Assembly: GCA_035569605.1 (NCBI GenBank)
Contig: DATMMS010000005.1
Span: forward strand, 355,262 to 419,261
Direction: 5' to 3'
DNA length: 64,000 nucleotides
Source of the DNA: Candidatus Solibacter sp.
GTDB lineage: Bacteria > Chloroflexota > Dormibacteria > DASZGP01
Numbering within the stretch: the first letter of the stretch is position 1; each line of letters starts with the position of its first letter. Below, one piece after another: positions 18,139 to 64,000 of this stretch. A program made the position numbers and the translations under genes. Below the pieces are notes generated by a model, which worked only from the letters and a program-made list of their open reading frames with translations, had not been told where the DNA came from and did no database searches.

Positions 18139-19544
18139 CCAGGCCTCGGTTGCGCACGTCGAAGACAGTCGCGTTCGGTATTTTTGTCGCGTTCACAGGC
18201 CTGCTGCTGCTGGCCGCCACTGTAATGGCCGAGGTGCCCGCAACCGTCGACTCCTACGGCGGCAACGCCTTTGCCTCGGGTGTCCACGTCATCGTCGGCA
18301 GCAACAACGACCCCAACTTCTCCAACGGCGCGATCGGAAACCGGTATCCGCTGGCCCAGGCGGGGCAGGACATCTCGCCGGCATCGTCAGCGACAGCGAG
18401 CGTCGACGACTACGGGCCGTTGGTGTCGACCGTCCTCGGCAATGACTGCAACGCGCCGCCGCCGAGCCCTCTGCCGGCACCGTCGCCGCAGCCCAGTCCG
18501 AACTACTGCCTGGAACAGATCCGCAGGGACGTCCCGTACGCCCGGGCCCAGTTCCCCAACCCGCCCGGTGTGGCGGATCAGACGGTCAACGGTCCGAGCG
18601 ACCCCAGCCTGCCCCCGCTGCCAAGCACGGGCACGGCAAGCGCTCACGCCCGGGAGCTCCGGGCCTTCGCCGATGGCGTCTACACGGGATCGCCGGACGG
18701 AGCCACGTTCACCAACGCCACGGCCCACAGCGAGACCGGCGTCGCCAGTGATGGAACCATCACCGTCCGGACCCATTCCCACATCGGCTCCGCGTGTTTC
18801 GGCAGCTGCGGAGTGTCCAACTGGCTCCAGGTCACCAACACCGACGTGCAGACCATCGTCACCGCCGTCAACGGCAAGCCCGTGCCGCAGGCCGTGGTGG
18901 CGCCAGGACAGGTGCAGTTCTGTTCCGCGCCGGGGAACTGCCAGTCGGTGCAACTCTCAAACAACGGCGTCACCGTCGGAGGAATCGCCCCCCCGACGCC
19001 GCCTCCACCGGTCCCCGGTATTCCCACGTCGGTGCCGGTCCCAGGTACGGGAGCCAGCGGCGAGACCCCATTCTTCAAGGTCCGCACCATCAACCCGATC
19101 AAGTCCGTCAACGGCTCCACCGGGTCCATCGATGCTCTGGGCCTCGACGTCGAGGTCATGCAGCCGGGCAACTCGGGCTCCGGTATTCCCGACTCCCAGG
19201 TCGAGTTCATCCTCGGTGAGGGCCACGCCGACGGCTTCTCGCTGGCCTCGCTCGGTCTTGAGTCCGGCGGCGTCACCGACCTAACCGGCGGTGGCGACAC
19301 CGGCTCGCTGCTGGGGAGCATCGTGGGGGATAACCCAGGCGGCAGCGCCGCCGGCGTCACGCTGCCCGCGATCAAGCACACCGTCATCCGCCCCGGCGGA
19401 TTGGCTCTGGCGGGAGCTCTGCGGCCTCCGTTCATACCCTGGTTCTACGCCTGGGAAGCCTCCGCCTTCGCGGCCGCCGCTTCGATGGTCTGGGCCCGAA
19501 GGAGCCGTCTGAGAGACATTGCCGAGGAGGCGCTGGGCCAATGA
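18135..19544 (+). CDS. Hypothetical secreted/membrane-anchored protein, Pro-rich, Cys-containing
   Basis: 469 aa; N-terminal signal/anchor (VAFGIFVAFTGLLLLAA), C-terminal hydrophobic segment; ATGA overlap with ATPase stop; no family recognised. Confidence 0.6.
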   Translation: MTRPRLRTSKTVAFGIFVAFTGLLLLAATVMAEVPATVDSYGGNAFASGVHVIVGSNNDPNFSNGAIGNRYPLAQAGQDISPASSATASVDDYGPLVSTVLGNDCNAPPPSPLPAPSPQPSPNYCLEQIRRDVPYARAQFPNPPGVADQTVNGPSDPSLPPLPSTGTASAHARELRAFADGVYTGSPDGATFTNATAHSETGVASDGTITVRTHSHIGSACFGSCGVSNWLQVTNTDVQTIVTAVNGKPVPQAVVAPGQVQFCSAPGNCQSVQLSNNGVTVGGIAPPTPPPPVPGIPTSVPVPGTGASGETPFFKVRTINPIKSVNGSTGSIDALGLDVEVMQPGNSGSGIPDSQVEFILGEGHADGFSLASLGLESGGVTDLTGGGDTGSLLGSIVGDNPGGSAAGVTLPAIKHTVIRPGGLALAGALRPPFIPWFYAWEASAFAAAASMVWARRSRLRDIAEEALGQ

Positions 19545-19804
19545 GCGTGATGGCGGCCCGAACCGGCAAGACCACCCTGCACTGCCCCAACGACGACTGG
19601 GATTTCGATCCCCGATACACGGAGGGGGTATGCCCGATCTGCGGCTGGGGTCCGGGAAAGCGGCCCACCGCGGCCTGGCTGGCGCGGGTTGAGGCCCTGC
19701 CCTGGGACTACATCACGCTGGCGATCTTTGCTGTCGTGCTGCTCGTCGTGGGTGTGCTCGTCGGCATGGCCGCCAACGTGAACATCCTTCCCCAGGGCGC
19801 CTGA
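19541..19804 (+). CDS. Small zinc-ribbon membrane protein (hypothetical)
   Basis: 87 aa; CPNDDW...CPICGW Cys pairs then TM helix ITLAIFAVVLLVVGVLVGM; ATGA overlap with upstream gene. Confidence 0.5.
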   Translation: MSVMAARTGKTTLHCPNDDWDFDPRYTEGVCPICGWGPGKRPTAAWLARVEALPWDYITLAIFAVVLLVVGVLVGMAANVNILPQGA

Positions 19805-19866
19805 GGCTGCACCAGCTGTGATCGCCGCCGGCAACCTGCCGGCGGCTCAGTCGGAGGATCTTGGGG

Positions 19867-20427
19867 CTATCGGCGGGCTGTTCGCCAGGCCGAGTACGCT
19901 GTCGCGACGCCGGCCAGGCTGATCGCCGCCAGCAGGGATTCCACCGGCACCCCCGTGGTGAAGGGTGCCATGCCGATCGTCCAGGGGGCGCGATTGTGAG
20001 CCAGGACGGCGATATTGCTGGCGGTCACGAAGCCGACCAGCGAGGCGCCGCCCGCGGCCAGGATCGCAAGCCGCCGGACCCGGCCGGCGCCGGCGAGCGC
20101 CAGCGCTGCAGCCCCGATCAGCGTCAGGCCGAGTCCCAGCTCGGTCAGCTCGACAAGCCGGGGCAATATCGTCGGGAACCGGGAGGCCAGGTTCGCCATC
20201 ACGGCACCGTAGGGTCCTGGAGCGTGGGAGACGAAGCCCACAAAGCCGTTCACAAACGCGGCGTTCTGCAGCTTGGTCAAGCCTGAGAAGAGCCACTCCC
20301 AAGCCTGTACGGCGCTCAGAGTGGCGATGCCTACGTAAGGTCCCGCGGTCGCGAGCCCGGTACGGGCGGCTGTATGGACCCTGGCCGGAGCCGAGGTCCT
20401 GGTAGGGGAGACTGATGTAGCAGCCAT
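19867..20427 (-). CDS. Hypothetical polytopic membrane protein (possibly DoxX-like)
   Basis: 186 aa, several hydrophobic helices; family assignment weak. Confidence 0.45.
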   Translation of the reverse strand: MAATSVSPTRTSAPARVHTAARTGLATAGPYVGIATLSAVQAWEWLFSGLTKLQNAAFVNGFVGFVSHAPGPYGAVMANLASRFPTILPRLVELTELGLGLTLIGAAALALAGAGRVRRLAILAAGGASLVGFVTASNIAVLAHNRAPWTIGMAPFTTGVPVESLLAAISLAGVATAYSAWRTARR

Positions 20428-20654
20428 CTGGTCTGCCTCCTGTGCGGTTGTCCCGTACGAATCATCCGTACGGCGACTCCACTGGTGATAACTCCACGTT
20501 GATATACGGCATTCCGATGCGGCACCGGGCGCGCGATTGATCCGCGGCGCGCTTGGGGGACAGAGGGTTCAGAGGCCACTCTTCGCCTCAGACGTAGCGT
20601 CGTAAATTGTATCTTTTGCGACGTTTACCGAGAGGAAGAGAGTGGCGTCGGGGC

Positions 20655-21579
20655 CTATTTCGCCCGGCTGAAGTTCGCCGTGACCTTCGCGTCCAGCTGC
20701 GTTCCGAGGTCCTGGTACTGCTTTTGCAACGTGGCGTAGTCGAACTTCTCCAATGCGTCGATATCAATCTTGAGGGCCGCCTGGGCAGTCTCGATCGCGG
20801 ACAGATTCCGGTTCTGGACGCCGTCCACGACGCCCTTGATATGGGTCAGCTCCGACCTGAAAACGGCCAGGAACTCCTTCAGCTTGGACGGCGTGTCGGG
20901 CGCGGCCGTGGCTCCGGTGATCAGCTTGTCAAGGCTGGCGCTGGGAGCCGCATAGTCAGCCTCAGCGGTACTCACCTTTTGCGCGGTCAGGTCGGCGCTC
21001 AGAGTCTTGAGCTCGACCAGGGTGGTCATGAGATCGCTGATCAGGCCGATCTGCTGTTTGACCGATCCGATTACGCTTATCTCAGCGACAAGGCCATCGT
21101 GATAGGCGCCCAGCCGGCCATGCTCGCGATCCAGCATGCTCGCCGAGATGGCTGTGAACATTGATCGATCCTGTACCTTCCGGTCGGCCGTTGCGACGTC
21201 CCTGATCTCGGTTTCATCCGTGGACTTGAGCGAGTCGAGCTCCACGTTTGCCTGGTCCAGCGCCGTCTTCGCTCGGGCAGGGTCAAAGTTGGTCCCGCTA
21301 AGGTCACCCACGCCGCTGAAGACCGTGCGCAGCTTGGCTTCGAAGTCGACATGGCGCTGGTCGACGGTCGAGCGCACGGCGTTTGAGGCATCGATCCTGT
21401 CTTTGGCCGCGGCCCTGGAGGCGACGACATAACCCACCGCCACCCCGATCAAGACCACCACCGCCGCGACGACGATCAGGAGATTGCGCACGAGGTGGCC
21501 CGCTGCCGCTACGGGTGGCGGTGGCAGTGATTCCCATAATGCTGGCGTGGGCGTGGCCTGGACTGCTGGCTCGTCGATC
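20655..21579 (-). CDS. Hypothetical membrane-anchored protein with long helical ectodomain
   Basis: Start placed at ATG 21579 preceded by GAGAGGGGGA RBS-like purine run; N-terminal TM (LLIVVAAVVVLIGVAVGYVV); the ORF-track start 22112 is an Arg-rich extension overlapping the divergent gene. Confidence 0.6.
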
Positions 21580-21665
21580 ATTTCGTTGCGTTCCCCCTCT
21601 CGGTTACCCCGCAGTGGGGACCATGGTAGGCCACTTGTGCGCTGGCGTGCGCCTAACCTAGACGC

Positions 21666-22139
21666 ATGCGGGCGGTGAGTCTGCGGACGGCTGAGGTCCT
21701 GACCTGGATCGCGATCTGCCTGACCAGCTTCCTGGCGTTCCGGATCTTCGCGATCTACCTCACGCTGCTCAACCCGGCGACGTGCAACGACAGCTGTGAC
21801 CTGGGCCGCGACGCCATCCGCGTGTTCCTGGCGGTCTTCGTCGTCGGCTGGTTTCCCTGGCTGCTGATGCTCTGCATCTCCTACGCGCGGCGCCACGCCG
21901 AGCTGTGGTGGCTGCCGCACTGCGTGGTGATCGTCGGCGCCTATATCTTCGCCATGGCGTATGTGGCGGTCCTGTTCATGGGCTTCAGCGACGCCAATGG
22001 CCGCACGCCGTTCCTGGCGCTCTCGGCCGCCGCTAGCCTCGGGTTGGCCGGCCTGGTGCTGATCGCCGGCGTCGTGCTCGATCGCCATGTCCCCCCGGAC
22101 ACCACCGTCCACTTCTTCCAGGAGGACTCCGGAGAGTAG
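21666..22139 (+). CDS. Hypothetical membrane protein
   Basis: 157 aa, 4 predicted TM helices; divergent from previous gene. Confidence 0.5.
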   Translation: MRAVSLRTAEVLTWIAICLTSFLAFRIFAIYLTLLNPATCNDSCDLGRDAIRVFLAVFVVGWFPWLLMLCISYARRHAELWWLPHCVVIVGAYIFAMAYVAVLFMGFSDANGRTPFLALSAAASLGLAGLVLIAGVVLDRHVPPDTTVHFFQEDSGE

Positions 22140-23604: not shown

Positions 23605-23985
23605 TCAGCCGCTTTTACGAATGCCGTTATAGATAGTCTTGCCGCCCACCAGCAGCAGGTAAACCGCGAACACCTGGCGCAGCCGCTGCTGGTCGATGTG
23701 CACCGCCAGATAGGCGCCGGCCGCGGCGGTGACTGCCCCCAGCAGACCCATCCAGATCGTGGGCTGGATGTCGATATTGCCGCGGCGATAGTGCGACTGC
23801 GCTCCACTCAGCGCGGTGGGCAGGATAACCAGCAGGGACGTGCCCTGGGCGACCGATTGCTGCACTCCCAGGACCAGCACCATCGCCGGAACCATGATCA
23901 CGCCGCCGCCGATCCCAAGCGCTCCGGAAAGCATTCCTGAGACCAAACCGATGACCAGGGTCAGCGCCCCCTCACCGACGTTCAT
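23605..23985 (-). CDS. TSUP (TauE/SafE, DUF81) family membrane protein, C-terminal-half-like unit
   Basis: 126 aa, 4 TM; GxGGG motif SGALGIGGGVIMVP; start ATG overlaps stop of upstream half (ATGA). Confidence 0.7.
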   Translation of the reverse strand: MNVGEGALTLVIGLVSGMLSGALGIGGGVIMVPAMVLVLGVQQSVAQGTSLLVILPTALSGAQSHYRRGNIDIQPTIWMGLLGAVTAAAGAYLAVHIDQQRLRQVFAVYLLLVGGKTIYNGIRKSG

Positions 23986-24389
23986 GGCAGCAGCAGCCTG
24001 GTCGCCACGACGACGAGCAGCACGCCGAAGGCCAGCGTCAGCTGGCGGTCCGAGACGCGGTGGGCGATGACGGCGCCAAGCCGTGCGCCGACAACCCCTC
24101 CGATCGCCAGCAGCAAAGCGAGCTCAAACCGCACATTGTGGCCGCCCGCCAAGTAGTACGTGGCCACACCCACGATCGAGATCGGGATGATGGCGAGCAG
24201 CGAATTGGCGACCGCCCGCCTCTGGTTGAGGCCCAGCGCCCAGGTCAAACCTGGCACCAGCACCACTCCCCCACCGACGCCCAACAGGCCGCTCACGAAG
24301 CCGGCCACAGTGCCGACGCCAAGGGCCCGAGCTAAGGGCTTACCAGTAGCGCCAGGCACGGTTTCCGGGAGAGGTTCCAAACATCTCAC
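23982..24389 (-). CDS. TSUP (TauE/SafE, DUF81) family membrane protein, N-terminal-half-like unit
   Basis: 135 aa ORF; SGLLGVGGGVVLVPGL motif; start probably downstream of 24389 because the ORF overlaps the spoIID-like 3' end by 50 bp. Confidence 0.65.
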   Translation of the reverse strand: MRCLEPLPETVPGATGKPLARALGVGTVAGFVSGLLGVGGGVVLVPGLTWALGLNQRRAVANSLLAIIPISIVGVATYYLAGGHNVRFELALLLAIGGVVGARLGAVIAHRVSDRQLTLAFGVLLVVVATRLLLP

Positions 24390-30215: not shown

Positions 30216-30293
30216 TGGTCGGCGAGACAGGATTTGAACCTGCGACCCCCAGTCCCCCAGACTGGTGCGCTACCGAGCTGCGCCACTCGCCGG
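30216..30293 (-). tRNA. tRNA-Pro (anticodon GGG)
   Basis: Cloverleaf folds by hand: acceptor CGGCGAG/CTCGCCG, anticodon stem CCAGT/ACTGG, loop CTGGGGG, T-loop TTCAAAT, encoded CCA. Confidence 0.9.
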
Positions 30294-41359: not shown

Positions 41360-41449
41360 ACTTCTCTGGAGCATATGAGTCGAGGGATTGTCGAGATCGA
41401 AAGGGCGGCTGTCGACGCCGTCAGCGGCAGGCCGCCGTCGCCTGCCGCC

Positions 41450-42871
41450 ATGATCCGCTCCCGGGTGTCCGGCGTAAGCGCGTATCAGCGTGGCCTGGTC
41501 GCGATAACCGCGCTGGCCCTGCTCGCGAGGACGGTGCTACTGGGGACGGTCCCTCGGTTCTGGGGCGACGAGGCCTTCAACGCTGTCCAGGTCCGCAAGC
41601 CGCTGCTGTCGATGCTCGACGTTGTCCGCCACGACAGCCACCCGCCGTTGATCTACCTCCTGCAAGCGCTTATCGCCACGGTTTCCACTTCGCCCGCCGC
41701 GCTGCGCCTGGTCTCCGCGCTGGCGGGCACCGCCGCGGTCCTGCTGTCGGCGGCCGTCGGCCGGCGCCTTGCCGGCGACCGCGCCGGCCTACTGGCCGCC
41801 GCGGTCCTGGCGGCCTTCCCCGGCTACCTGCTGTCTTCGCGTGACGCGCGCGGCTACGCGCTGGCGATGGCGCTGGTGCTGGCGGCGTCGCTGACCCTGT
41901 GGCGGGCGATCGAGCGTCCCACCCGAGGCCGGCTGGCGGTGTACGGCGTTTGCGTCGCGGGCGCCGTGTACACCCACTACTTCGCGGTCCCGGCGGTGGG
42001 TGTCCAGCTGGTGGTGGCGCTGTGGGCGTTTCGGCCTGGAAAGCGGGTCGCCGCCAGGCTGGTGATCGCGGCCGGACTGGGCGGCCTGACCCTGGTGCCC
42101 TGGCTGGCGGTGGCGACGGCCCAGTTCCAGCACGCCGGCTCCTCCTTCTGGGTCGCGCCGATACACTTCGGCTCGCTACTCGCCGACCTGTGGACCCGGG
42201 TCGGGCAGACCCCCGGCGAGGAGCTGACGACGCTGGGGACCTTGCTTGGCGAGGCCGCCCTGGTCCCGTTGGTGGTGGTGCTCTATCGCCGCGCCGATCC
42301 TGCCCGCCGCCCAGCCGTCCTCTATCTGTTGGGGTGCGCCCTGGTGCCGACGGCGGCGCTGCTGGCGGCCAGCCTGGTAAAGCCGGTATACGACACCCGG
42401 TTTGTGCTCATCTTCTGGGGACCCGGAGAAGCCGTCGTCGGCGCCAGCCTGGCCGTGATCCCCTGGCGCTGGGTGGCGCCCGCCGTGTGCATCGGGTTGG
42501 TGATGGCGTCGGTCCTGAGCCTGTCCCAGATCCAGCGACCCGACTTTGAGGCGGTGGCGGCTCCGCTGAAGGGGCATGTACAGCCCGGCGACGTGGTCGC
42601 GCTGAACGGCGCAGACCACTACTTCTCGATCGCATATGCGGTCGATGACGCCACGGCCCGCCGGATGGTGGTCGTCGCCGATGACATCCCGTGGTATTTC
42701 GGCACCGCCGGCTATCCGCCCGGCACCCAGGTGCACGCAATCCCCAACGTGCCCGGAAGGATCTACCTGGTGACCGACGAGGGACGCCGGCTGCCACGGA
42801 TCCCTTCCGGCTTCAAACTGGCCAGCAGCTCCTGCCATGGGGGAGTCTGCGTGGACGCGTACGCCCGCTGA
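41450..42871 (+). CDS. GT-C fold glycosyltransferase, family 39-like (PMT_2/ArnT-like)
   Basis: N-terminal TM cluster with conserved Asp-containing loop (FWGDEAFNAV...HDSHPPLIYLL); start approximate (ATG 41375 would abut the divergent EamA start). Confidence 0.7.
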   Translation: MIRSRVSGVSAYQRGLVAITALALLARTVLLGTVPRFWGDEAFNAVQVRKPLLSMLDVVRHDSHPPLIYLLQALIATVSTSPAALRLVSALAGTAAVLLSAAVGRRLAGDRAGLLAAAVLAAFPGYLLSSRDARGYALAMALVLAASLTLWRAIERPTRGRLAVYGVCVAGAVYTHYFAVPAVGVQLVVALWAFRPGKRVAARLVIAAGLGGLTLVPWLAVATAQFQHAGSSFWVAPIHFGSLLADLWTRVGQTPGEELTTLGTLLGEAALVPLVVVLYRRADPARRPAVLYLLGCALVPTAALLAASLVKPVYDTRFVLIFWGPGEAVVGASLAVIPWRWVAPAVCIGLVMASVLSLSQIQRPDFEAVAAPLKGHVQPGDVVALNGADHYFSIAYAVDDATARRMVVVADDIPWYFGTAGYPPGTQVHAIPNVPGRIYLVTDEGRRLPRIPSGFKLASSSCHGGVCVDAYAR

Positions 42872-42903
42872 CCGTCGCCGGTAGAGCCCTGCCCCGCTGG
42901 GTC

Positions 42904-44358
42904 GTGCCCGCCATCGCGGTGGCCTTGGTGGCGGCGGCGCTGGCGGTGCGGCTCGTCGATCTGCAGTCCCAGCCCGGAGGGCTGTACCCAGACGAAGGCG
43001 CCGAGGCCCTGGACGCCTACCGGCTGCTCCACGTGCCTGGATTCCACCCCGTTTTCTTCCACGACGACGGCGGCCGCGAGGCCCTCTACGCGTACGTGGT
43101 CGCGGTTGCTTTCAGGATCGCCGGCGCCTCTGTCCTGGTGCTGAGAAGCGTCTCCGTGGCGATCGGTGTGCTCGCGGTGGCGGCCCTATACCCGGCGCTG
43201 CGGCGGTTCGGGCCGGCTGTGACCCTCGCCGGCATGGCCTGGGCGGCAGGAGCCCTGTGGTTGATCTGTATCTCACGCGACGGCATGCGCAACGTCCTGG
43301 TACCGCTGTTTGGCGCCTTGCTGCTGTGGGCCCTGGTGCGCTGGGCCGACCGGCCGGCGCGGGGCGCCGCGCTGCTCGCGGGCGCGATAGCCGGCGCCGG
43401 GTTGTGGACCTACCAACCCCTCAAGCTGGCCCCCATCCTGGTCGTGCTCTGGCTGCTCTGGCTTCGACACGCCAACCACGAGCGCTACCTGCGGATGCGG
43501 TCAGGCCTCGGATGGTTCGCGCTCGCCTACGCCATCGCCGGCGCGCCGATGCTGCTGACCGCGGTAATGGACCCCGTCAACTACTTCGGTCGCGCCGCTG
43601 GGGTCTCGCCGCTCAACCCGGCCAACTCCGGGATCGGATTCGTCGACCACACCCTCCGGACGCTGGGGATGTTTGTGTTCGCCGGTGACCCCAACCCACG
43701 ACACGACGTCGGGTCCCTTCCCCTGTTGGGGTGGCCATTGTTCGGGCTGGCATGCCTGGGCGCCTGGAGCGCCTGGACGCGGCGGCACGACCCCGGTTAC
43801 GCGCTGGTCCTGTTGGGAGTGCCGGTCTTCCTGCTGCCCCCCCTACTGGGCATCGACGGCGGGGTGCCCCACTTCCTTCGCAGCCTGGGGCTGGCGCCGT
43901 TCCTCGCCGCCCTGGTCGGCATGGGAGCTGCTCTCCTGATCGACTTGTCCCGGCGGCGACCCGGACCCTGGCCCCGGGTCCTTGCCGTCGCCTCCCTGGC
44001 GGTACTCCTTGCCGTCGTTGGCGCAGGTAGCTGGATCGCCTACTTCTCCCGCCCCCAGAGCGCCCGGTACCAGGCTTTTGCATACGACGTGGTTGCCCTG
44101 GCGAACGCCGCCGGTCCCCGGGACGCCGTGGTCGTCGACGACTACAACCGGATCGATGTCGAGTTCCTCGACGCAGGCCGGCCGACCCGGATTTTCCAGC
44201 ACGGCGTCCCTCTGACCGACCCCGGCCGGTACGCCCAGGTCCTTGCTCTCAGCAGGCAGGACTTGGAGGTGGCGCTGGGTCCGGCGGTGGCGGCCAGAGC
44301 CCGAGTTGTCTCGACGACCCCGGCCGGCAGACCGGCGGTTTGGTCGGTGGCCCCGTAG
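42904..44358 (+). CDS. GT-C fold glycosyltransferase, family 39-like, second paralog
   Basis: GGLYPDEGAEALDAYRLL...VFFHDDGGREALY loop motif and polytopic profile; frame is open upstream into previous gene; start set at first GTG after its stop, uncertain. Confidence 0.65.
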   Translation: MPAIAVALVAAALAVRLVDLQSQPGGLYPDEGAEALDAYRLLHVPGFHPVFFHDDGGREALYAYVVAVAFRIAGASVLVLRSVSVAIGVLAVAALYPALRRFGPAVTLAGMAWAAGALWLICISRDGMRNVLVPLFGALLLWALVRWADRPARGAALLAGAIAGAGLWTYQPLKLAPILVVLWLLWLRHANHERYLRMRSGLGWFALAYAIAGAPMLLTAVMDPVNYFGRAAGVSPLNPANSGIGFVDHTLRTLGMFVFAGDPNPRHDVGSLPLLGWPLFGLACLGAWSAWTRRHDPGYALVLLGVPVFLLPPLLGIDGGVPHFLRSLGLAPFLAALVGMGAALLIDLSRRRPGPWPRVLAVASLAVLLAVVGAGSWIAYFSRPQSARYQAFAYDVVALANAAGPRDAVVVDDYNRIDVEFLDAGRPTRIFQHGVPLTDPGRYAQVLALSRQDLEVALGPAVAARARVVSTTPAGRPAVWSVAP

Positions 44359-44535: not shown

Positions 44536-47500
44536 GTGCCTGACGGCGTCGACCGCGTCGCTGGGGCTGACCACACGAACGCGGAATCGACCGACGAGGA
44601 TGAATTCTCTGTCCCGACGGGCGATCCCGAGCAACTGCTGAGCGTCCTCTTCACCGACCTCGTCGGCTCGACCGAGCTGTCGGGCCGGATTGGCGATGCC
44701 GAGTCGGCGGAGTTGATGGAGGAACTCAACGGGCTGCTGGCGCGTCAGTTCGAGCGATTTGCTGGTCGTGTCGTGAAGAGCACCGGCGATGGTTTCCTGG
44801 TGACGTTCACCTCGGTTCGGAAGTCGATCGCCTGCGCGCTGGCGATCCAGCAGGCGATGGCGGAGCGGAACCGCCGCCGGGCAGGCCAGCCACTCACGAT
44901 CCGCATCGGCATCAACGCCGGTGAGGTGTCGATCGGACGCCACGACGTGCACGGATCAGCCGTCAACGCCGCCGCCCGGATCGTGGACAAAGCCGAGCCG
45001 GGAGAGGTGCTGGTATCGGAGACGGTCAAGCAGCTTGGCGGCAGTACATCGGGAATCGAGTTTTCCGACCGCGGCCGGGTGCGACTCAAGGGCTTCGAAG
45101 ACCGCTGGCGCGTTTACCGCGTCTGCCTCACAGAGGACGCCGCATCCACGGCGCCCGTGGTGCCGGCGCGAACAGCGTTCGTGGGCCGTGAGCAGGAGAC
45201 GGCGGCTCTTACGCGCAGGCTCGAGCTGGCGCTGGGCGGCCAGGGCGGGCTGGTGATGATCGGCGGCGAGCCCGGTGTGGGCAAGACCCGGCTCAGCAAG
45301 GAGCTCGCGGCGATCGCCGCCAAGCGGGGCATGCGCGTCCTCACCGGCCACTGCTACGAGACCGCAGGCACCCCTCCATACGTTCCCTTTGTCGAAATCC
45401 TGGAGACCAGCCTGGTCGAAGCCGGCGCCCAGGGGTTCCGAGTGGCACTCGGTGAGGGCGCGGCCGAGGTGGCCCGCATCATGCCCGAGCTGCGACGAGT
45501 CTTCCCGGATCTTCCCCCACCGCTGCAACTCCCTCCCGAGCACGAGCGTCACTACCTGCTCAACAGCCTCACCGGCATCGTCACCCGTGCGGCTTCGCGC
45601 GGTCCGCTGCTGATGATCGTCGAGGATCTACATTGGGCCGACGAGCCCACCCTGCTGCTGGTGCAGAACCTCGCCGAACGGCTGGTCGACGCCCCCGTCC
45701 TGATCGTGGGCACTCATCGGGACAGCCACGTCGACATCGGCGAGCCGCTGACCCGAACCCTGGAAGCACTCCACCGGCGGCGGCTGGTCCACAGGATGGC
45801 TCTCAAGGGACTCGACCGTGAGGGCGTCCGGGCCATGCTTGTGGCCCTCGCCGGGCAGCAGTTTCCCGAAGGCCTGGTGGAGTCGATATTCGACGAGACG
45901 GAGGGCAACGCCTTCTTCGTCGAGGAGGTGTTTCGGTTCCTGGTCGAAAACGACCGGCTGTACGACCAGTCGGGCCGGTTCTTCGACGCAATCGCGCTGG
46001 GCGAGCTGGACGTGCCCGAAGGCGTGCGGCTGGTGATCGGCCGCCGCCTGGAGAACCTGAACGCCGAGGATCGTGAATCCCTGGCCGCGGCTGCGCTGAT
46101 TGGCCGGTGGTTCAGTTTCAAGCTGCTCCAGGAAGTGGCCGACAGTGACGCCGACACGCTCCTTGACGGGATCGACAAAGCCGAGGCGGCCGGACTGTTG
46201 GTGCCGTCGACCGAGGCCGGCCAGGCGCGTTTCAGCTTCGCCCACGAGCTGATAAGGCAGACATTGGTGACGGGGCTGTCGCCGGCTCGACGGCAGCGAA
46301 TCCATCTCCGCATCGCTGACGCGCTGGAGCGTATGCATTCGGACAACATCGACAACCGGGTCGCTGAGATCGCCCACCACCTCGCCAGCGCGGGCGAAGC
46401 CGCCGAGGCCGAGCGGACCGCGGGGTACCTGGTGCGCGCCGGCGATCGGGCGCTCGGCGCGGCAGCCTTCGAGGACGCCCTGCGGCTGTACGAGCAGGCA
46501 GTCGCGATTCTGCCCCCAGACAGTCCCGCGGGGGCCGACGCGCGGAGGCAGCTGGGTATGGCCCAGCGCTGCCTCGGGCGATGGGACGAGGCGATGGCGT
46601 CCTGGGAGCTGTGCCTGGCGACCTATGAGCGTCTCGGCGACGCCGACGCCATCGGGCTGCTCTGCCGGATCGCCGCCATTCAGCTGTCCTGGCAGGCCCG
46701 ATTCCGAGACGCCCTCCACCTGGCTGCCAAGGGACTGGCGGCGCTGGGCGAGCGGTCGACTCCCGACCGTGCCCGCTTGATGTGCTTCACCGGTGGCACC
46801 ATGTCGCTTGCCGGCGACGCCGCCCAGGGCGAGATGATGACCACCGAGGGAACCCGGATCGCGACCGAGCTGAACGAGCCCGGAGCGATCGCGTACGCGA
46901 TGTACATCCGCACCGTGCATCTCTTCGCATCGATGCGCTACCCCGAGGCGGTCGCGGTCGGCACCGCCGCCGAGCCGCTTCAACTGGCGATCGGCAACGC
47001 CTGGGACCTGGCCAGCCTCAAGGCGCACATCGCCCAGTCGCAGCTGGGCATGGCGGCCTTCGAGGACTGCGAAGCAACCGCTGACGCACTGGCCGAGCTG
47101 GCGGGGCGGATCAGCCACCTGGGGGCTTCGATGTACGCGCCGCGCCTGCGCGCTTCGATCGCCTTCATGCGCAGCGGCGACATATCGGCCTGGCGCCGGT
47201 TCGCCGAGGCGGACCTCGACTTCATGGACAGGCACGACCTTCCCCTGATCGCGGACTGCAGCACCTATCTCGGCCTCGCCGATTTCTGGGCCGGCAGCTG
47301 GGACAGCGCCCTGGAGCTGATGAGCACCGGCGTGGCCGGCGAACGGCCGGGGGCGATCGGGGGCAACGGGGCGATCCTGGCCGTCTATCAGGCCTACGCG
47401 GGCGACCTCCACGAGGCGCTGGCCCTGGTGGACACCCACGCCGGCCGGCGGCCGGTTCATGGGGCGCTCAGCGGACGCGGCGCCTGGACCGAGCTGTTCT

Positions 47501-47880
47501 GCGACGTGGAGACGCTGGCCGTCGCCGGTGAGCACGCCAGGGCAGCCGAGCTCTACCCGTTATTGGCCGAGGCCCTCGCGTCCAGGGTCGTGATCAGGCC
47601 TCTTGACTCGCGCCTGATCGAAACCCTGGCCGGCATAGCCGCGGCCTCGGGCGAGGACTGGCCGGCGGCAGCTACCCATTTTGAGACGGCCATCAGGCTG
47701 GCAGCCGAACTTCCGGCAAGACTGGAGGCCGCCGACGCCCGCCGCTTCTACGCCTTGATGCTCGAGACCCAGGGAGCGCAGAGCTCACTGGAGAAGGCGC
47801 GGCAGCTCCGGGCTGAGGCGCGCGACATCTACCTGTCGATGGAGATGCCCCGCCACGCTGAGATGGTGGCGGGGCCCTAG
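44536..47880 (+). CDS. Multidomain protein: class III nucleotidyl cyclase domain + P-loop NTPase (AAA_16/STAND-like) + TPR-like helical repeats
   Basis: 1114 aa; cyclase blocks FTDLVGSTE / KSTGDGFLVTF / HGSAVNAAARI; Walker A GGEPGVGKT, Walker B-like LLMIVEDLHWAD; long helical C-terminus; GTG start with AAGGTAG RBS. Confidence 0.85.
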   Translation: MPDGVDRVAGADHTNAESTDEDEFSVPTGDPEQLLSVLFTDLVGSTELSGRIGDAESAELMEELNGLLARQFERFAGRVVKSTGDGFLVTFTSVRKSIACALAIQQAMAERNRRRAGQPLTIRIGINAGEVSIGRHDVHGSAVNAAARIVDKAEPGEVLVSETVKQLGGSTSGIEFSDRGRVRLKGFEDRWRVYRVCLTEDAASTAPVVPARTAFVGREQETAALTRRLELALGGQGGLVMIGGEPGVGKTRLSKELAAIAAKRGMRVLTGHCYETAGTPPYVPFVEILETSLVEAGAQGFRVALGEGAAEVARIMPELRRVFPDLPPPLQLPPEHERHYLLNSLTGIVTRAASRGPLLMIVEDLHWADEPTLLLVQNLAERLVDAPVLIVGTHRDSHVDIGEPLTRTLEALHRRRLVHRMALKGLDREGVRAMLVALAGQQFPEGLVESIFDETEGNAFFVEEVFRFLVENDRLYDQSGRFFDAIALGELDVPEGVRLVIGRRLENLNAEDRESLAAAALIGRWFSFKLLQEVADSDADTLLDGIDKAEAAGLLVPSTEAGQARFSFAHELIRQTLVTGLSPARRQRIHLRIADALERMHSDNIDNRVAEIAHHLASAGEAAEAERTAGYLVRAGDRALGAAAFEDALRLYEQAVAILPPDSPAGADARRQLGMAQRCLGRWDEAMASWELCLATYERLGDADAIGLLCRIAAIQLSWQARFRDALHLAAKGLAALGERSTPDRARLMCFTGGTMSLAGDAAQGEMMTTEGTRIATELNEPGAIAYAMYIRTVHLFASMRYPEAVAVGTAAEPLQLAIGNAWDLASLKAHIAQSQLGMAAFEDCEATADALAELAGRISHLGASMYAPRLRASIAFMRSGDISAWRRFAEADLDFMDRHDLPLIADCSTYLGLADFWAGSWDSALELMSTGVAGERPGAIGGNGAILAVYQAYAGDLHEALALVDTHAGRRPVHGALSGRGAWTELFCDVETLAVAGEHARAAELYPLLAEALASRVVIRPLDSRLIETLAGIAAASGEDWPAAATHFETAIRLAAELPARLEAADARRFYALMLETQGAQSSLEKARQLRAEARDIYLSMEMPRHAEMVAGP

Positions 47881-55798: not shown

Positions 55799-55892
55799 TG
55801 GCGGAGCGGGAGGGATTCGAACCCTCGAACGAGGTTGCCCCCGTTACGGCATTTCCAGTGCCGCGCCCTCGACCGGACTAGGCGACCGCTCC
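55799..55892 (-). tRNA. tRNA-Ser (anticodon GGA)
   Basis: Class II tRNA with long variable arm; anticodon stem CGGCA/TGCCG, loop CTGGAAA; T-loop TTCGAAT; encoded CCA. Confidence 0.9.
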
Positions 55893-57823: not shown

Positions 57824-57912
<89 letters not shown>

Positions 57913-59199: not shown

Positions 59200-59206
59200 G
59201 AGAAAG

Positions 59207-59280
59207 GGTGACCTGTGGGGCTTGAACCCACGACCTCCAGGGCCACAACCTGGCGCTCTACCAACTGAGCTAAGGCCACC
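59207..59280 (-). tRNA. tRNA-His (anticodon GTG)
   Basis: Anticodon stem CCAGG/CCTGG, loop TTGTGGC; encoded extra 5' G (G-1) opposite discriminator C; CCA not encoded. Confidence 0.9.
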
Positions 59281-59314: not shown

Positions 59315-60571
59315 TCAGATGCGCCCGTCCAGGAAGAACGTCCGCATCGGCCCCTTTCCCTTGACGTCGATCACCCCCCGCTCCCGGAACCGGTGGGTGT
59401 CGCGGAGGATCGTCCAGCACCTCTCGGTGACCTGGATCTCGCCCGCCAGGCTGTTGGACTCCATCCGGCTGGCGGTGTTCACGGTGTCGCCCCAGAGGTC
59501 GTATATGAACTTGCGCTTGCCGATGACCCCCGCCACAGCGGGGCCGGAGTCGACCCCGATCCGGATGTCGAGCGGAGCGTTGATCTCATTTCGCACCGAC
59601 GCCAGCACGACCCGCATTTCCAGCGCCAGGTCGGCGATTGCCGCGGCGTGATCAGGACGGGGCGATGGGATCCCGGCGGCGACCATGTAGGCATCGCCGA
59701 TGGTCTTGATCTTCTCCAACCCGCGGCTGTCGACGATCTGGTCGAAAGCGCTGAAGAGGCTGTTCAACAATGTCACGACCTCCTGCGGCGCCAGCGAAGC
59801 GGACAGCGGCGTGAACCCGACGACGTCCGCAAACAGAACTGACACGCCGTCGAACCCGTCGGCGATGACGCCGTCCGATCGTTTCAATCTCTCCGCTACC
59901 GGGGCGGGGAGCACGTTCAACAAAAGGCCCTCGGATCGAGCATGTTCGGCGTCCAGCGCCGACTTCATCTTTTCTCGCTCGCCGACGAAGTAGAGCAACA
60001 CCAGAAAGACGACCAGGGCGACGCCGCTGACGTCGAGCAGGAAGAAAACCACCCTGACATCGGCGGGAATCGCGGGGCGGGGCAGCAGGTGAAACGCCTC
60101 CAGGAATCCCGACACCAGCACCAGGGCCAGGAATCCCAAGAACCATGGCCACGACTTCCGTAATCCGACGAACATCAGCGCTCCCAGCGGAGCCACCACG
60201 GCCCACAGAGCCACCGCGCTCGAAGCCGCGAAGCCGCCGAGACTCCACTGCAGAAGAAACGGCAGGATCAGCATCAAGGGGAGCTGCGTGGCGAGGAGAA
60301 AGCGGAACCTCTTGGTCGCGAAAAACACCGCCAGCGATATGACGACCACGACCTGGTACGCCAGCGGTATCAGCGCCGAGAGCCAGATCCCGAGATAGCC
60401 ATAGATGCCCACCCAGACAAACGCCAGTAGCGTGACGAGGCAGGCGGTGATGGTCAGCGTGCTCTTTCTCAGCAGCTCATCTCCGCTGTCGCCGGGCAGA
60501 GTGCCGGCCCGCGCCAGACGCGTCACCCACCGAGTGAGGGCTCCTTGGGAAGGGGTGATCTCTGGCGTCAT
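59315..60571 (-). CDS. Membrane-bound class III adenylate/guanylate cyclase
   Basis: About 6 N-terminal TM helices then cyclase domain (VLFADVVGFTPL, KTIGDAYMVAAG, GDTVNTASRMES). Confidence 0.85.
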   Translation of the reverse strand: MTPEITPSQGALTRWVTRLARAGTLPGDSGDELLRKSTLTITACLVTLLAFVWVGIYGYLGIWLSALIPLAYQVVVVISLAVFFATKRFRFLLATQLPLMLILPFLLQWSLGGFAASSAVALWAVVAPLGALMFVGLRKSWPWFLGFLALVLVSGFLEAFHLLPRPAIPADVRVVFFLLDVSGVALVVFLVLLYFVGEREKMKSALDAEHARSEGLLLNVLPAPVAERLKRSDGVIADGFDGVSVLFADVVGFTPLSASLAPQEVVTLLNSLFSAFDQIVDSRGLEKIKTIGDAYMVAAGIPSPRPDHAAAIADLALEMRVVLASVRNEINAPLDIRIGVDSGPAVAGVIGKRKFIYDLWGDTVNTASRMESNSLAGEIQVTERCWTILRDTHRFRERGVIDVKGKGPMRTFFLDGRI

Positions 60572-60676: not shown

Positions 60677-60752
<76 letters not shown>

Positions 60753-61437: not shown

Positions 61438-62844
61438 TCACAGCAGGTGGTAGACGTTGCCCAGGTTGAGGCTGGTCGCCGCTCCGGCGAGGACGATCAG
61501 GGCAAGGCTGAGCGCTGTACCCATCCTGGCGGCAGGCACCCAGAACTCGGAGTCGCGTCGCCACAGGAGCACGCCGGAGGGTAGGACCAGCAGCGCCACG
61601 ACCGCCGCCAGCAGAAAGGCGTCGGGTTGCCACGGGGTGTTCCCCACCGCCAGCTCGGTCGCCCCGGCGCCACCCAACACGATCACCAGGAGCAGGCCCG
61701 GCAGCGACGGACGGCGTAGCACCTCCCAGCAGACGTACCCCGCCGCCAGGTAGATCAGCGGGTACAGCACGATCCGGTACCAGCCATAGCGGGGCATCAC
61801 TGTGGCATCGCCCAGCACGGCGATCCCCGCCGCGTAGGCGACCAGGGGCCAGCCGAGCAGCAGGGCCCTGGGGCCCATCCGCTCCCGCAGCAGCAGCACC
61901 GCGGCGCCCAGCCAGCCGAGGTGCCACCATCCATCGGTCAGGCGCCCGCCCAGGCCCGCGTTGTCGGTGATGAAGCCGACTCCCGCCGTCACCCCGTGCC
62001 GATGGGTGCTCCATTCCTGCAGCACCGCGATGAAAAGCCTGAAGTCGAAAAGCGCCGCGTAGCCGAAGTAGAGGCCCAATCCCGCGAGCGCAGCCAGCGC
62101 CACCGCCGCAGCGAGGCGCCAGTGGCCAAGACTGAGCAGGATCGTCGCGACGGCCGCCCCCAGCACCAGTCCGGTGATCTTGGTCAAAGGCAGGAGAAGC
62201 GCGCAGCCGAGCAGCGTGGCGATCGCCGCCCTGCCGCCATCCTCGACGTGGAGACGGTGCACCATCAGCAGGCCGAGCAGGAGCAGCGGCGCAAGCAGCG
62301 CCTCGGTCTCGACCTCCCGGCCCATCAGCACGGCGCCGGGCGTCACCGCCAGCAACAGCACACCGAGGAGAGCGGCGCGGCGGTCAAGGATCCGGCGCCC
62401 GAGCAGGTAAGCCAGCGACAGCGATAGCAGGCCGAGAGTGATGCCGACGGGTCTGACCATCGCGTCGGTCACATCGGTCAGGTTCCGCGCCCCCAGCAGG
62501 TAAACCCAGGCGCCGGTAAGGAACGACAGCAGCGGCGGATGCGTGAGCCACGGATGCACGATCTTGTAGGTCGTCCCGTTGGCGAGCAGGACGTAGTCGA
62601 CGTGGTACGCGCGCAACACCTCCCACGAGTACGGGACGTGCTTGGTGATCAGGGTGAGGCCGCTCCAGGCGAACTGGAGTGGGTCCTGGTTGTCAGAGAG
62701 CTGCGGCGCGGCGGTGAAGTCGTGGTAGCGAAGGGCTGTGGTGACCAGGAGGATGATCGCGACCGCAGCGGTCTCCAACCGCGTCCAGTTAGGCGGTCGG
62801 GACCAGGTTTCGCCGTCCTCCGCGGCGCCGGCCGCCCGGGTCAC
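61438..62844 (-). CDS. Hypothetical polytopic membrane protein (possible GT-C-like)
   Basis: 468 aa, more than 10 hydrophobic helices; start overlaps stop of upstream ResB-like gene (ATGA). Confidence 0.55.
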   Translation of the reverse strand: MTRAAGAAEDGETWSRPPNWTRLETAAVAIILLVTTALRYHDFTAAPQLSDNQDPLQFAWSGLTLITKHVPYSWEVLRAYHVDYVLLANGTTYKIVHPWLTHPPLLSFLTGAWVYLLGARNLTDVTDAMVRPVGITLGLLSLSLAYLLGRRILDRRAALLGVLLLAVTPGAVLMGREVETEALLAPLLLLGLLMVHRLHVEDGGRAAIATLLGCALLLPLTKITGLVLGAAVATILLSLGHWRLAAAVALAALAGLGLYFGYAALFDFRLFIAVLQEWSTHRHGVTAGVGFITDNAGLGGRLTDGWWHLGWLGAAVLLLRERMGPRALLLGWPLVAYAAGIAVLGDATVMPRYGWYRIVLYPLIYLAAGYVCWEVLRRPSLPGLLLVIVLGGAGATELAVGNTPWQPDAFLLAAVVALLVLPSGVLLWRRDSEFWVPAARMGTALSLALIVLAGAATSLNLGNVYHLL

Positions 62845-64000
62845 CCCGAGGTCGACTGGGGCGCGGCGCCGGGGGCTCGGGGGCGCCTGCCGCCGTCGAC
62901 GGGCAGGGGGGTGTTGGCATCGGTCCGCCTACCGATGGCCGCCGCGACGCCCTCCCGAGGCTGCGCCACCCGGCGCCGCGCCCTGGCTTCGCGCGCCTGC
63001 AGCAGGGGGGCGAGGTAGAGCCTGACCATCAACCCACCGAGCATGAGCGCGAAGGAGAACCAGATCACCGGCACTCCGGGATCGTCGGTAGCCTGGAGCC
63101 CGGTATAGCGCAGAAGCTGCGGAAAGCTGACCCGGTAGCCGCCGGGGAGGCCGACGCTCTGGCCCAGCAGCACTCCGCCGGTCCAGATCTCGCTCATCCG
63201 CGTGGTGTCCAGCTCGTTCACGTTCTGAGCCCGGGCAGCCTGGAGGTCGCCCTTGAAGAAGCGGAACAGCACCGCGGGGTTGTTGGGATTGGCGCTGCCG
63301 GCCCGCGCGCCGTTTGGCCCCTGCTGTAGGTCGGGCACCATGAACATCAACGCCCCCAGCTGCTGGCCCGGGGGACCCGCGGCGGGCACCTTGAGGATCC
63401 CGTTCTGCAGCTGCGGGTCGCCGAAGAAGTTGATCGGGCCGTTGAAGACGGTCTTGCCGGTGGGGTCGGTCACCTGCAGGACCGGCGACCATCCGTAGCT
63501 GGCCTGGTAGAACTTGACGCCGCGATATTCCAGGTAGTCGTTGACCCGGATGTCCTTCTGCATCACCTTCCTGCCCCCGTCGAACACTTCGACGTGGGAG
63601 ACGAACTCCTGGGGCTTGCCGTTGGCGTAGTAGCTGGCGTTGAAGCTGTCGACGCGGACTTCGTAGCCCTTGTGCTGGCCGGCGCCGAACAGGACCCCCT
63701 CTTCGATCTGGTCGTATGACGGCCGCGCCTCGACCACCGACTGGCCTTCGATGACGTTGACGAAGGCGGAGAAGCCGGCCGCCTTGCCGTACAGGACGCC
63801 GAAAAGGAGAACGAAGAAGCTGAGATGGAAGACCAGGCTCCCGGCCTCGCCGATGAACTGGTGGTTGCGGGGCAACCCGCGTCGCCAGCGCCGGTACAGG
63901 GCTCGGCCGCGCGTGTAGACGCAGTTGGAGAGCGATGTATACATCAGCACCGCGGCGACCACCAGCGGCCAGGATTCGTAGACCGAGAACAAACCCAGCC
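62841..64000 (-). CDS. ResB/Ccs1-like cytochrome c biogenesis protein, N-terminus outside window
   Basis: Large extracytoplasmic region followed by C-terminal TM (GLQATDDPGVPVIWFSFALMLGGLMVRLY) resembling ResB; partial, tentative. Confidence 0.5.
   Translation of the reverse strand, partial: LGLFSVYESWPLVVAAVLMYTSLSNCVYTRGRALYRRWRRGLPRNHQFIGEAGSLVFHLSFFVLLFGVLYGKAAGFSAFVNVIEGQSVVEARPSYDQIEEGVLFGAGQHKGYEVRVDSFNASYYANGKPQEFVSHVEVFDGGRKVMQKDIRVNDYLEYRGVKFYQASYGWSPVLQVTDPTGKTVFNGPINFFGDPQLQNGILKVPAAGPPGQQLGALMFMVPDLQQGPNGARAGSANPNNPAVLFRFFKGDLQAARAQNVNELDTTRMSEIWTGGVLLGQSVGLPGGYRVSFPQLLRYTGLQATDDPGVPVIWFSFALMLGGLMVRLYLAPLLQAREARARRRVAQPREGVAAAIGRRTDANTPLPVDGGRRPRAPGAAPQSTSG

Follow-up and report, generated by a model that had tools for sequence, protein, structure and literature searches.

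Within a stretch of 64,000 nucleotides from a member of the Dormibacteria (contig DATMMS010000005.1; the whole stretch is referred to as the window), a gene resembling resB crosses the window end and overlaps the start of a gene for a polytopic membrane protein of 468 amino acids. The first-pass annotation of this locus offered two explanations: either the ResB assignment is wrong and both proteins belong to another membrane system, for example glycosyl transfer, or ResB is combined with a non-canonical partner instead of CcsA/ResC. The locus raises the question of what the two proteins are, whether they belong together and where CcsA is encoded. The reading favored here, with a probability of roughly 0.8, is that two functionally separate membrane-protein genes, resB of System II and a gene for a GT-C glycosyltransferase, share one operon, with CcsA being encoded at a separate locus. 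The relevant features of the window are the following:

61438 to 62844, minus strand: gene for a predicted GT-C glycosyltransferase of 468 amino acids (Pfam PMT_2 match, predicted fold)
62683 to 62694, minus strand: codons for D51-N52-Q53-D54 of the GT-C protein, located in extracytoplasmic loop 1 (alignment; translation checked)
62841 to 62844, minus strand: GTGA overlap, the start of the GT-C gene lying on the stop of resB (read from the sequence)
62841 to 64000, minus strand: 3′ part of resB, an ORF crossing the window end (residues 78–462 and the stop codon)
63825 to 63827, minus strand: codon for His135 of ResB within the motif SLVFHLSFF (alignment and profile alignment to CcsBA; translation checked)

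ResB and the 468-residue protein

The upstream ORF encodes a genuine ResB, i.e., a System II cytochrome c biogenesis protein of the ResB/CcsB/Ccs1 type. The part lying inside the window (385 translated residues) already matched the Pfam family PF05140 (E = 1.1e-51, 176.6 bits), which confirms the ResB-like character initially proposed; an NCBIfam search with this partial protein yielded no match. By extension into the parent contig the N-terminus could be recovered: resB starts about 229 nt past the window end, and its full-length product of 462 amino acids (L001:8616-10001) reached 227.8 bits against PF05140 (E = 3.3e-67; cut-off 24.6), so that the complete protein fits the ResB profile. Hydropathy peaks were found at residues 33–51, 78–96, 129–157 and 386–410, and the AF2 model exhibits helices at 13–50, 87–116 and 123–151, a beta-rich region at 153–382 and a further helix at 386–421. 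This is the ResB topology of three N-terminal transmembrane helices, a beta-rich external domain and a C-terminal transmembrane helix. The only PDB chains matched by the ResB profile were of the CcsBA type, and in a Foldseek search of the model against the PDB CcsBA alone was returned at E ≤ 1e-3 (7s9y, E = 7.5e-7; 7s9z, E = 1.1e-5; both with a probability of 1.0). The TM-scores between model and CcsBA are low (0.23), since CcsBA has twice the length of the model and a different domain orientation. H135 is invariant across 21 aligned clade sequences, and the profile alignment pairs the segment ‘slvfHlSFF’ of ResB with ‘SLLLHASFIV’ of Helicobacter hepaticus CcsBA (7s9y), the histidine of which we take to be H77/TM-His1, a transmembrane heme ligand.

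Altogether 66 ResB homologs belong to the Dormibacterota clade; the Dormibacteria and Dormibacterota names found in it assign the window to Candidatus Dormibacterota. Their lengths range from 390 to 467 amino acids compared to 513–584 in other phyla, and outside the clade the identity falls abruptly to ≤36%. A set of weaker matches (P0068-P0077) was considered as possible second, canonical paralogs of the same phylum and was rejected, as their contexts are standard actinobacterial resA-ccdA-resB-ccsA operons. With a GC3 of 0.89–0.91 in a sequence of 67% GC, both resB and the gene of the 468-residue protein look as expected for real genes.

The 468-residue protein contains about 11–12 hydrophobic helices and is, judged by profile, motif and predicted fold, a lipid-linked-sugar GT-C glycosyltransferase. 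PMT_2 (PF13231) was the sole Pfam family returned for it (E = 5.6e-11, 43.3 bits; cut-off 26.1). All of its 27 orthologs, each at least 42% identical, likewise carry PF13231, and their NCBI name is ‘glycosyltransferase family 39 protein’. For the AF2 model (pLDDT 80.1, pTM 0.85) ArnT was the best Foldseek match (5f15/5ezm, E = 2.7e-6), with further matches to Pmt4, AglB, STT3A/B, EmbC/EmbB, ALG9/12 and AftA/B (probability 0.97–1.0); from ArnT to ALG9/12 the probability was 1.0. In an alignment of 21 sequences D51, N52 and D54 are invariant and form a DNxD motif, as are H102-P103-P104 and E179/E181. The helix map of the model places the DNxD motif in loop 1, and an acidic loop-1 motif is typical of GT-C catalytic sites.

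Features of a heme-handling protein were, on the other hand, absent. The regular expression W[GA]xxWxWD for the WWD motif yielded no match in any frame of the window, and neither did an HMM derived from seven genuine CcsA genes and run at full sensitivity. The 468-residue protein itself had no PF01578 match in Pfam at E ≤ 0.1, and the confident Foldseek matches of its model were all GT-C glycosyltransferases and included no CcsBA or CcmF chain. As both a WWD motif and a CcsA profile match are missing, the GT-C protein does not stand in for CcsA as a heme handler. The lack of WWD pointed out in the first-pass annotation thus holds, and its suggestion of glycosyl transfer was right for the 468-residue protein but wrong for ResB, which keeps its profile score, TM-His1 and CcsBA fold. 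The idea of a non-canonical partner is not supported, in view of the catalytic signature of the GT-C protein, its lack of heme features and, as described below, lineages without the pairing and a PF01578-type CcsA elsewhere in the clade.

The operon and the resB/GT-C junction

On the parent contig of 311 kb the gene order is nuoLMN, mdh(-), p227, sdhA, p163, sdhB, resB, PMT_2, DUF1684(-). The product of p227 matches the membrane anchor of Mycobacterium smegmatis Sdh1 (7d6v_C, E = 2e-31), and the same order recurs in the loci L003-L011 and L038. The operon of this clade consists of sdhC (Sdh1-type anchor), sdhA, a 163-residue ORF, sdhB, resB and the GT-C gene, with resB in the last position but one. 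The closest reference locus, L003, shares identities of 86% (ResB), 92% (SdhA) and 95% (Mdh); a truncation of its GT-C gene is only apparent and stems from a 100-N scaffold gap rather than from a deletion.

The GTG start of the GT-C gene (62844-62842) and the TGA stop of resB (62843-62841) overlap by 4 nt. An overlap had correctly been noticed before, but its letters are GTGA and not ATGA; the latter is found, also as a 4-nt overlap, at the sdhB/resB junction outside the window. Residues 12–24 of the GT-C protein are conserved among the orthologs, which favors the upstream GTG start. The two overlaps make it probable that sdhB, resB and the GT-C gene share a transcript and that their translation is coupled. 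A consensus scan of the operon, which carries little information in this high-GC genome, found zero promoter-like sites, and terminator-like sites fell inside genes.

An overlap of start and stop codon of the form NTGA was present between resB and the GT-C gene in all ten GTDB reference loci of the clade, while in L038 the two genes are separated by a 6-nt gap. Such conservation argues that the overlap is no chance feature, and as it exceeds the expectation for a purely accidental neighbor, a functional link between the two genes is possible. The GT-C protein could then serve ResB or the respiratory machinery as a dedicated partner. Its substrates might be the large external domain of ResB, apocytochromes, or lipids or glycans that the synthase requires in its surroundings, and the coupling would set the stoichiometry. 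The orthogroup, moreover, appears to be confined to Dormibacterota-type sequences, and the two other PMT_2 paralogs of the window are merely distant relatives of the protein; both points speak for such a partnership. The pairing is, however, not obligatory. In L039 the sdh genes and resB are followed directly by DUF1684, the GT-C gene being absent in an otherwise identical context, and in a second clade, in which the order is nuoN-resB-TadE/TadG (tad pilus genes), it is absent after resB in all loci. In L037 resB is followed by LytR, also with no GT-C gene. The GT-C protein furthermore diverges much faster than ResB (40–69% vs. 61–86% identity at the same loci), and to our knowledge no GT-C enzyme has been connected with System II. 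A dedicated partner is thus unlikely. The broader version, in which the GT-C protein would be a dedicated accessory of a remodeled System II or respiratory module in the main Dormibacteria clade, appears similarly unlikely. The enzyme would then glycosylate ResB, apocytochromes of the c type or lipids of the surrounding envelope, and this would accompany the move of resB into an Sdh1-type operon, the splitting off of ccsA with resA and the change of WWD to WWGND in CcsA.

The location of CcsA

Loci from other phyla served as a positive control: CcsA was encoded directly downstream of ResB in all seven non-Dormibacterota loci of a genome scan, and in about 45 metagenome loci, likewise from outside the Dormibacterota, ResB was the gene immediately preceding CcsA. 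Within 10 kb of resB, CcsA was found in none of 22 Dormibacterota loci, and a PF01578 homolog was likewise absent within this distance in the window, the parent-contig locus L001 and 21 other clade loci. Instead, in 21 of 22 clade loci resB either occupies the 3′ end of the sdh operon or comes immediately after nuoN, and in none does it adjoin ccsA.

CcsA does, nevertheless, occur in relatives. On the contig L037 a clade ResB (62% identity) is accompanied by ResA-like genes, CcdA and, 5.2 kb downstream, a CcsA with PF01578. CcsA proteins 75–93% identical to the latter are encoded on 13 further contigs, in most cases with a ResA-like gene following. Additional, rearranged CcsA fragments were observed in L060. 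The clade CcsA exhibits the motif WGRWWGNDPKE compared to the usual WGxxWxWDPKE. In four long loci no ResB was found within 10 kb of the ccsA-resA module. As this module lies at loci without a nearby resB, the System II genes of Dormibacterota are dispersed, ccsA-resA being located separately from resB. The connection of the ccsA-resA contigs to the lineages with sdh-resB-GT-C would follow from one contig (L037) and from the parallel clade structure. A nucleotide match of the ccsA locus L051 to the nuoN-mdh spacer of L007 and L009 was rejected as a physical link, since it traces back to paralogous GAF-histidine kinases. In a protein-database search with the CcsA of L033, the nearest non-clade ResB locus, which was saturated at 8000 candidates, the 120 matches listed were all from Actinomycetota (Nitriliruptoria/Euzebya type), and a literature search found no papers on System II gene organization in Dormibacterota.

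Within 73 kb of the 311-kb contig of the window’s own genome, neither PF01578 nor DsbD nor any CXXCH protein was found. The search for ccsA and ccdA suggested by the first-pass annotation was accordingly successful in relatives but not in this part of the contig, and from these relatives we infer that ccsA is encoded elsewhere in the genome. CXXCH was also absent from well-supported ORFs over about 360 kb of clade DNA, a sample too small for this to be significant. A need for cytochrome c is implied by the caa3 oxidase of a Dormibacteria MAG (PMC8357290) and by cytochrome c oxidases found throughout the phylum (bioRxiv 10.1101/2021.08.23.457424).

The position of resB after the sdh operon or nuoN and never beside ccsA, its reduced length and the abrupt drop in identity could also be taken to mean that the clade ResB has been recruited away from cytochrome c maturation, to heme handling or assembly for Sdh or Nuo without CcsA. 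The adjacent Sdh, however, has an Sdh1-type anchor, which in M. smegmatis is reportedly heme-free, and complex I contains no heme. The clade ResB also keeps its CcsB-like fold and the histidine serving as transmembrane heme ligand, and clade-specific CcsA, ResA-like thioredoxin and CcdA exist and are loosely clustered with resB in L037. We regard such a recruitment as highly improbable. Its specific form of heme insertion into Sdh was rejected because of the anchor type and of the second clade, in which resB follows nuoN without sdh. The reading of a false ResB assignment, with both ORFs in glycosylation or another membrane system, for which gene adjacency and the missing NCBIfam match could be put forward, is already refuted by the PF05140 score and the CcsBA-only profile and Foldseek matches, and the ResB topology contradicts it as well.

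If two separate proteins are encoded in one operon, as favored here, H135 of ResB and a histidine of CcsA would, by analogy to CcsBA, ligate heme inside the membrane. Judging from homology, the external WWD site of CcsA would receive this heme next, before its attachment to CXXCH apocytochromes, which CcdA and ResA would keep reduced. The GT-C protein, in analogy to other GT-C enzymes, may use its DNxD loop to take a sugar from a polyprenyl-phosphate carrier and pass it to an acceptor at the external side of the membrane.

This assignment removes a false lead: the gene following resB encodes a putative glycosyltransferase and not an unknown heme lyase subunit, and annotators should therefore not deduce a non-canonical System II from this neighborhood. 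For the uncultured soil phylum Dormibacterota it describes dispersed System II genes, with resB having joined a succinate dehydrogenase operon of the mycobacterial type. This is useful for scoring the completeness of pathways in fragmented MAGs, as a search restricted to the neighborhood of resB would wrongly call ccsA absent. Two small, testable leads also emerge, namely the conserved resB/GT-C overlap and the WWGND motif of the clade CcsA.

Comparison with known systems

With the System II synthases, i.e., ResB/ResC of Bacillus subtilis and actinobacteria and CcsBA of H. hepaticus (7S9Y/7S9Z), the system described here shares the family profile, the topology and the transmembrane histidine of ResB, and Dormibacterota relatives possess a CcsA with a WWD-type domain, a ResA-like protein and CcdA. 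Unlike in these systems, resB neither adjoins nor is fused to ccsA but is part of an sdh or nuo operon. The clade ResB is, in addition, about 80–120 residues shorter than that of other phyla, and the clade CcsA deviates from the usual one in its WWGND motif. Unlinked core genes are also known from cyanobacteria and plastids, where Ccs1/CcsB and CcsA cooperate despite this separation of their genes. In contrast to these, the present case concerns a soil phylum of the Terrabacteria, in which resB is tied by overlaps to genes for succinate dehydrogenase and a GT-C protein.

The GT-C protein resembles the ArnT/PMT enzymes (GT83/GT39, PMT_2) in its profile match, in ArnT being the best fold, in the invariant acidic motif in external loop 1 and in a conserved HPPL. 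It differs from them in being almost wholly membrane-embedded, its 468 residues lacking a C-terminal soluble domain, and its identity to solved enzymes is ≤18%. The sdh genes, finally, follow M. smegmatis Sdh1 (7D6V) in the order anchor-sdhA-sdhB and in the homology of the anchor to SdhC of Sdh1, whereas in many Dormibacterota lineages sdhA and sdhB are separated by an additional 163-residue ORF with two transmembrane segments, and the operon is extended by resB and a GT-C gene.

ResB and the 468-aa protein encoded after it

Two genes lie at the high-coordinate end of the window:

62841-64000 (-): 3′ part of resB, an ORF running past the window end (385 residues available)
61438-62844 (-): GT-C gene, a 468-aa ORF directly after the resB ORF

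Both exhibit a third-position GC of 0.89-0.91, as genuine genes do at this overall GC content (67%). The available part of ResB matches the Pfam ResB family (PF05140) with an E-value of 1.1e-51, and the only Pfam match of the 468-aa protein is PMT_2 (PF13231; E 5.6e-11, exceeding the Pfam threshold). The first-pass annotation had described an ATGA overlap between the two ORFs. The overlap is real, but resB stop and GT-C start read GTGA in the window, and ATGA is found instead where the sdhB stop overlaps the resB start.

Looking up the exact sequence of the 468-aa protein located its parent, a 311-kb ENA metagenome contig of which a second assembly exists in Logan. The window corresponds, in reverse complement, to approximately 97.6-161.6 kb of the ENA contig. 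From this contig the full 462-aa ResB was obtained, including the N-terminus whose recovery had been proposed as a check. As the complete protein scores 227.8 bits on PF05140, the ResB call stands, and the earlier suspicion that it might be wrong can be dropped. The protein has three transmembrane (TM) helices at its N-terminus and one at its C-terminus, with a beta-rich external domain between them. His135, located within SLVFHLSFF, is invariant in the clade alignment and aligns to the histidine in SLLLHASF of CcsBA, the fused ResB-CcsA synthase of Helicobacter hepaticus; we regard this CcsBA histidine as the heme ligand TM-His1. For an AF2 model of ResB (pLDDT 77) the sole PDB matches at E ≤ 1e-3 were CcsBA.

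About 66 homologs of this ResB group tightly in one clade (45-100% identity, 390-467 aa), and all named sources are Candidatus Dormibacteria/Dormibacterota or 'Chloroflexota' MAGs. Beyond the clade identity falls abruptly to ≤36%, with proteins from other phyla being 513-584 aa long. The ResB of the window is identical to NCBI HXA42706.1 (P0001 in the homolog listing), labelled 'Candidatus Solibacter sp.' (Acidobacteriota). Named relatives of this entry and synteny all point to Dormibacterota; the label probably reflects a mis-binned or misclassified TPA MAG.

The 468-aa protein as a GT-C glycosyltransferase

All 27 homologs of the 468-aa protein, each at least 42% identical, contain PF13231, and one carries the NCBI name 'glycosyltransferase family 39 protein'. 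The alignment shows no variation at H102-P103-P104, at E179/E181 or in the motif D51-N52-x-D54, which lies in the first external loop. The best structural match of the AF2 model (pLDDT 80, pTM 0.85) was ArnT, followed by Pmt4, archaeal and human STT3, EmbC/EmbB, ALG9/12 and AftA/B (probability all about 1), and no heme-handling protein was among the structural matches. The protein is hence a GT-C glycosyltransferase that is nearly all membrane-embedded. The idea of a non-canonical ResB partner was thus not borne out, and the suggestion that both ORFs serve glycosyl transfer holds for the 468-aa protein, but not for ResB. That the 468-aa protein lacks a WWD motif was confirmed, as a search of all frames of the window yielded no match.

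Two further genes of this type are present in the window:

41375-42871 (+): PMT_2/GT-C gene, 498 aa, Pfam PMT_2
42691-44358 (+): PMT_2/GT-C gene, 555 aa, Pfam PMT_2, adjoining the former

They share only remote similarity with each other and with the resB-linked gene; the genome thus has several GT-C paralogs.

Gene neighbourhood of resB

On the parent contig resB is preceded by nuoL/M/N, a divergent malate/lactate dehydrogenase gene (mdh), a 227-aa membrane protein, sdhA, a 163-aa ORF and sdhB:

L001:4863-8619 (L001, the parent-contig locus; window equivalent about 64226-67982, just past the window end): succinate dehydrogenase genes before resB

The 227-aa protein is homologous to the Mycobacterium smegmatis Sdh1 membrane anchor (7d6v chain C, E 2e-31), and the succinate dehydrogenase is of the mycobacterial Sdh1 type. 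The two-TM 163-aa ORF, without any Pfam or PDB match, is kept in most lineages and missing in L006, L007 and L010.

One genome per GTDB species was scanned with a profile of the clade ResB, followed by tblastn with all operon proteins. In the nearest reference locus ResB is 86%, SdhA 92% and Mdh 95% identical. Three resB arrangements were found. The main clade (L003-L011 and L038; ResB ≥61% identical) exhibits nuoLMN, mdh(-), anchor, sdhA, (163-aa ORF), sdhB, resB and GT-C. In 10 of 10 GTDB loci of this clade the resB stop and a start codon share the sequence NTGA; in L003, an apparent exception, a 100-N scaffold gap starts straight after TTGACC. The resB to GT-C gap in L038 is 6 nt. In the second clade (L012-L024; 45-50% identity) resB directly follows nuoN and precedes TadE/TadG pilus genes. 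L037 (62% identity) contains ResA-like genes, resB, LytR, YkuD and ccdA (opposite strand); a 308-aa PF01578 protein is encoded downstream, 5.2 kb from resB, and another ResA-like gene comes next. Both resB and the GT-C gene belong to known families; their operon is lineage-specific.

The conserved 4-nt overlap exceeds the expectation for a random neighbour and might hint that the two are functionally linked, with the enzyme glycosylating, for instance, ResB or the envelope surrounding the synthase. However, L039, with an identical sdh-resB context, has lost the GT-C gene and carries a convergent DUF1684 gene directly after resB, both other arrangements lack GT-C as well, and GT-C diverges much faster than ResB at the same loci (40-69% vs 61-86% identity), which makes such a link rather improbable. 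Heme delivery by ResB to Sdh is unlikely, as the adjacent anchor is of the Sdh1 type, which is not known to carry heme in M. smegmatis, and second-clade resB follows nuoN with no sdh.

Other features of the window include:

44536-47880 (+): 1114-aa protein with adenylate/guanylate cyclase domain, AAA_16 STAND-type ATPase and TPR repeats
30216-30292, 55799-55892, 57825-57912, 59206-59279, 60677-60752: five tRNA genes (Pro-GGG, Ser-GGA, Ser-CGA, His-GTG, Arg-TCT)

The resB/GT-C pair has four of these tRNA genes close by, dispersed within the next 5 kb downstream. Cyclic-nucleotide signalling genes are abundant in this region: in addition to the 1114-aa protein, the window encodes a Crp-type regulator, two cNMP-binding proteins and a membrane cyclase (59315-60571). 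A TauE/SafE sulfite exporter (23605-24389, -) is divided between two overlapping ORFs of 126 and 135 aa, one matching the N-terminal and the other the C-terminal half of the Pfam model. The split could reflect a frameshift or a pseudogene, or the gene could genuinely consist of two pieces. A 469-aa ORF (18135-19544) of high GC3 has no Pfam match, and the adjoining 19544-21666 (about 2.1 kb) contains no ORF passing the GC3 filter, save a weak antisense one.

Location of ccsA

Neither a motif search nor a locally built HMM, run unfiltered, detected a CcsA homolog within 10 kb, be it in the window or in 22 clade loci. As a control, in each of the seven non-Dormibacterota loci of the GTDB scan ResB is directly followed by CcsA. 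The closest ResB proteins outside the clade are encoded in classical resA-ccdA-resB-ccsA operons. With the CcsA of L037 as query, 13 further JGI metagenome contigs with a 75-93% identical CcsA were retrieved (next relatives ≤42%); L060 has extra CcsA fragments in rearranged form. A ResA-like thioredoxin follows ccsA wherever these contigs extend downstream, and the four long ones (L043, L045, L046, L051) contain no resB within 10 kb of ccsA. The same search returned about 45 non-clade loci with resB directly upstream of ccsA. Pfam confirmed the gene calls.

The WWD motif region is WGRWWGNDPKE in all 15 CcsA sequences of the Dormibacterota type (L037:16540-17466; L040-L052, e.g., L043:6112-7068 and L046:10001-10903; L060). 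In these 15 the residue preceding the motif's aspartate is asparagine, and 69 of 69 other fetched CcsA have tryptophan there, a sample partly biased since 'WWGNDPKE' was among the six seed peptides of the scan. On the short metagenome contig L060 (1574-3643) fragments of ccsA and resA occur inverted on both strands around position 2650, which looks like a hairpin-type assembly artefact.

In 73 kb of the parent contig no PF01578, DsbD/CcdA or CXXCH protein was detected. The proposed check for ccsA and ccdA elsewhere was therefore negative for this part of the own genome and positive in relatives, with L037 having both on one contig; we infer that ccsA lies elsewhere in the window's own genome. 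Published MAG analyses describe a Dormibacteria MAG with a caa3 oxidase (PMC8357290) and a phylum-wide presence of cytochrome c oxidases (bioRxiv 10.1101/2021.08.23.457424), which provides a reason for the clade to keep a cytochrome c pathway. The clade thus possesses CcsA, and its genes for System II, the ResB/CcsA cytochrome c synthase pathway, are dispersed. In this respect the clade resembles cyanobacteria and plastids, for which dispersed System II genes are established.
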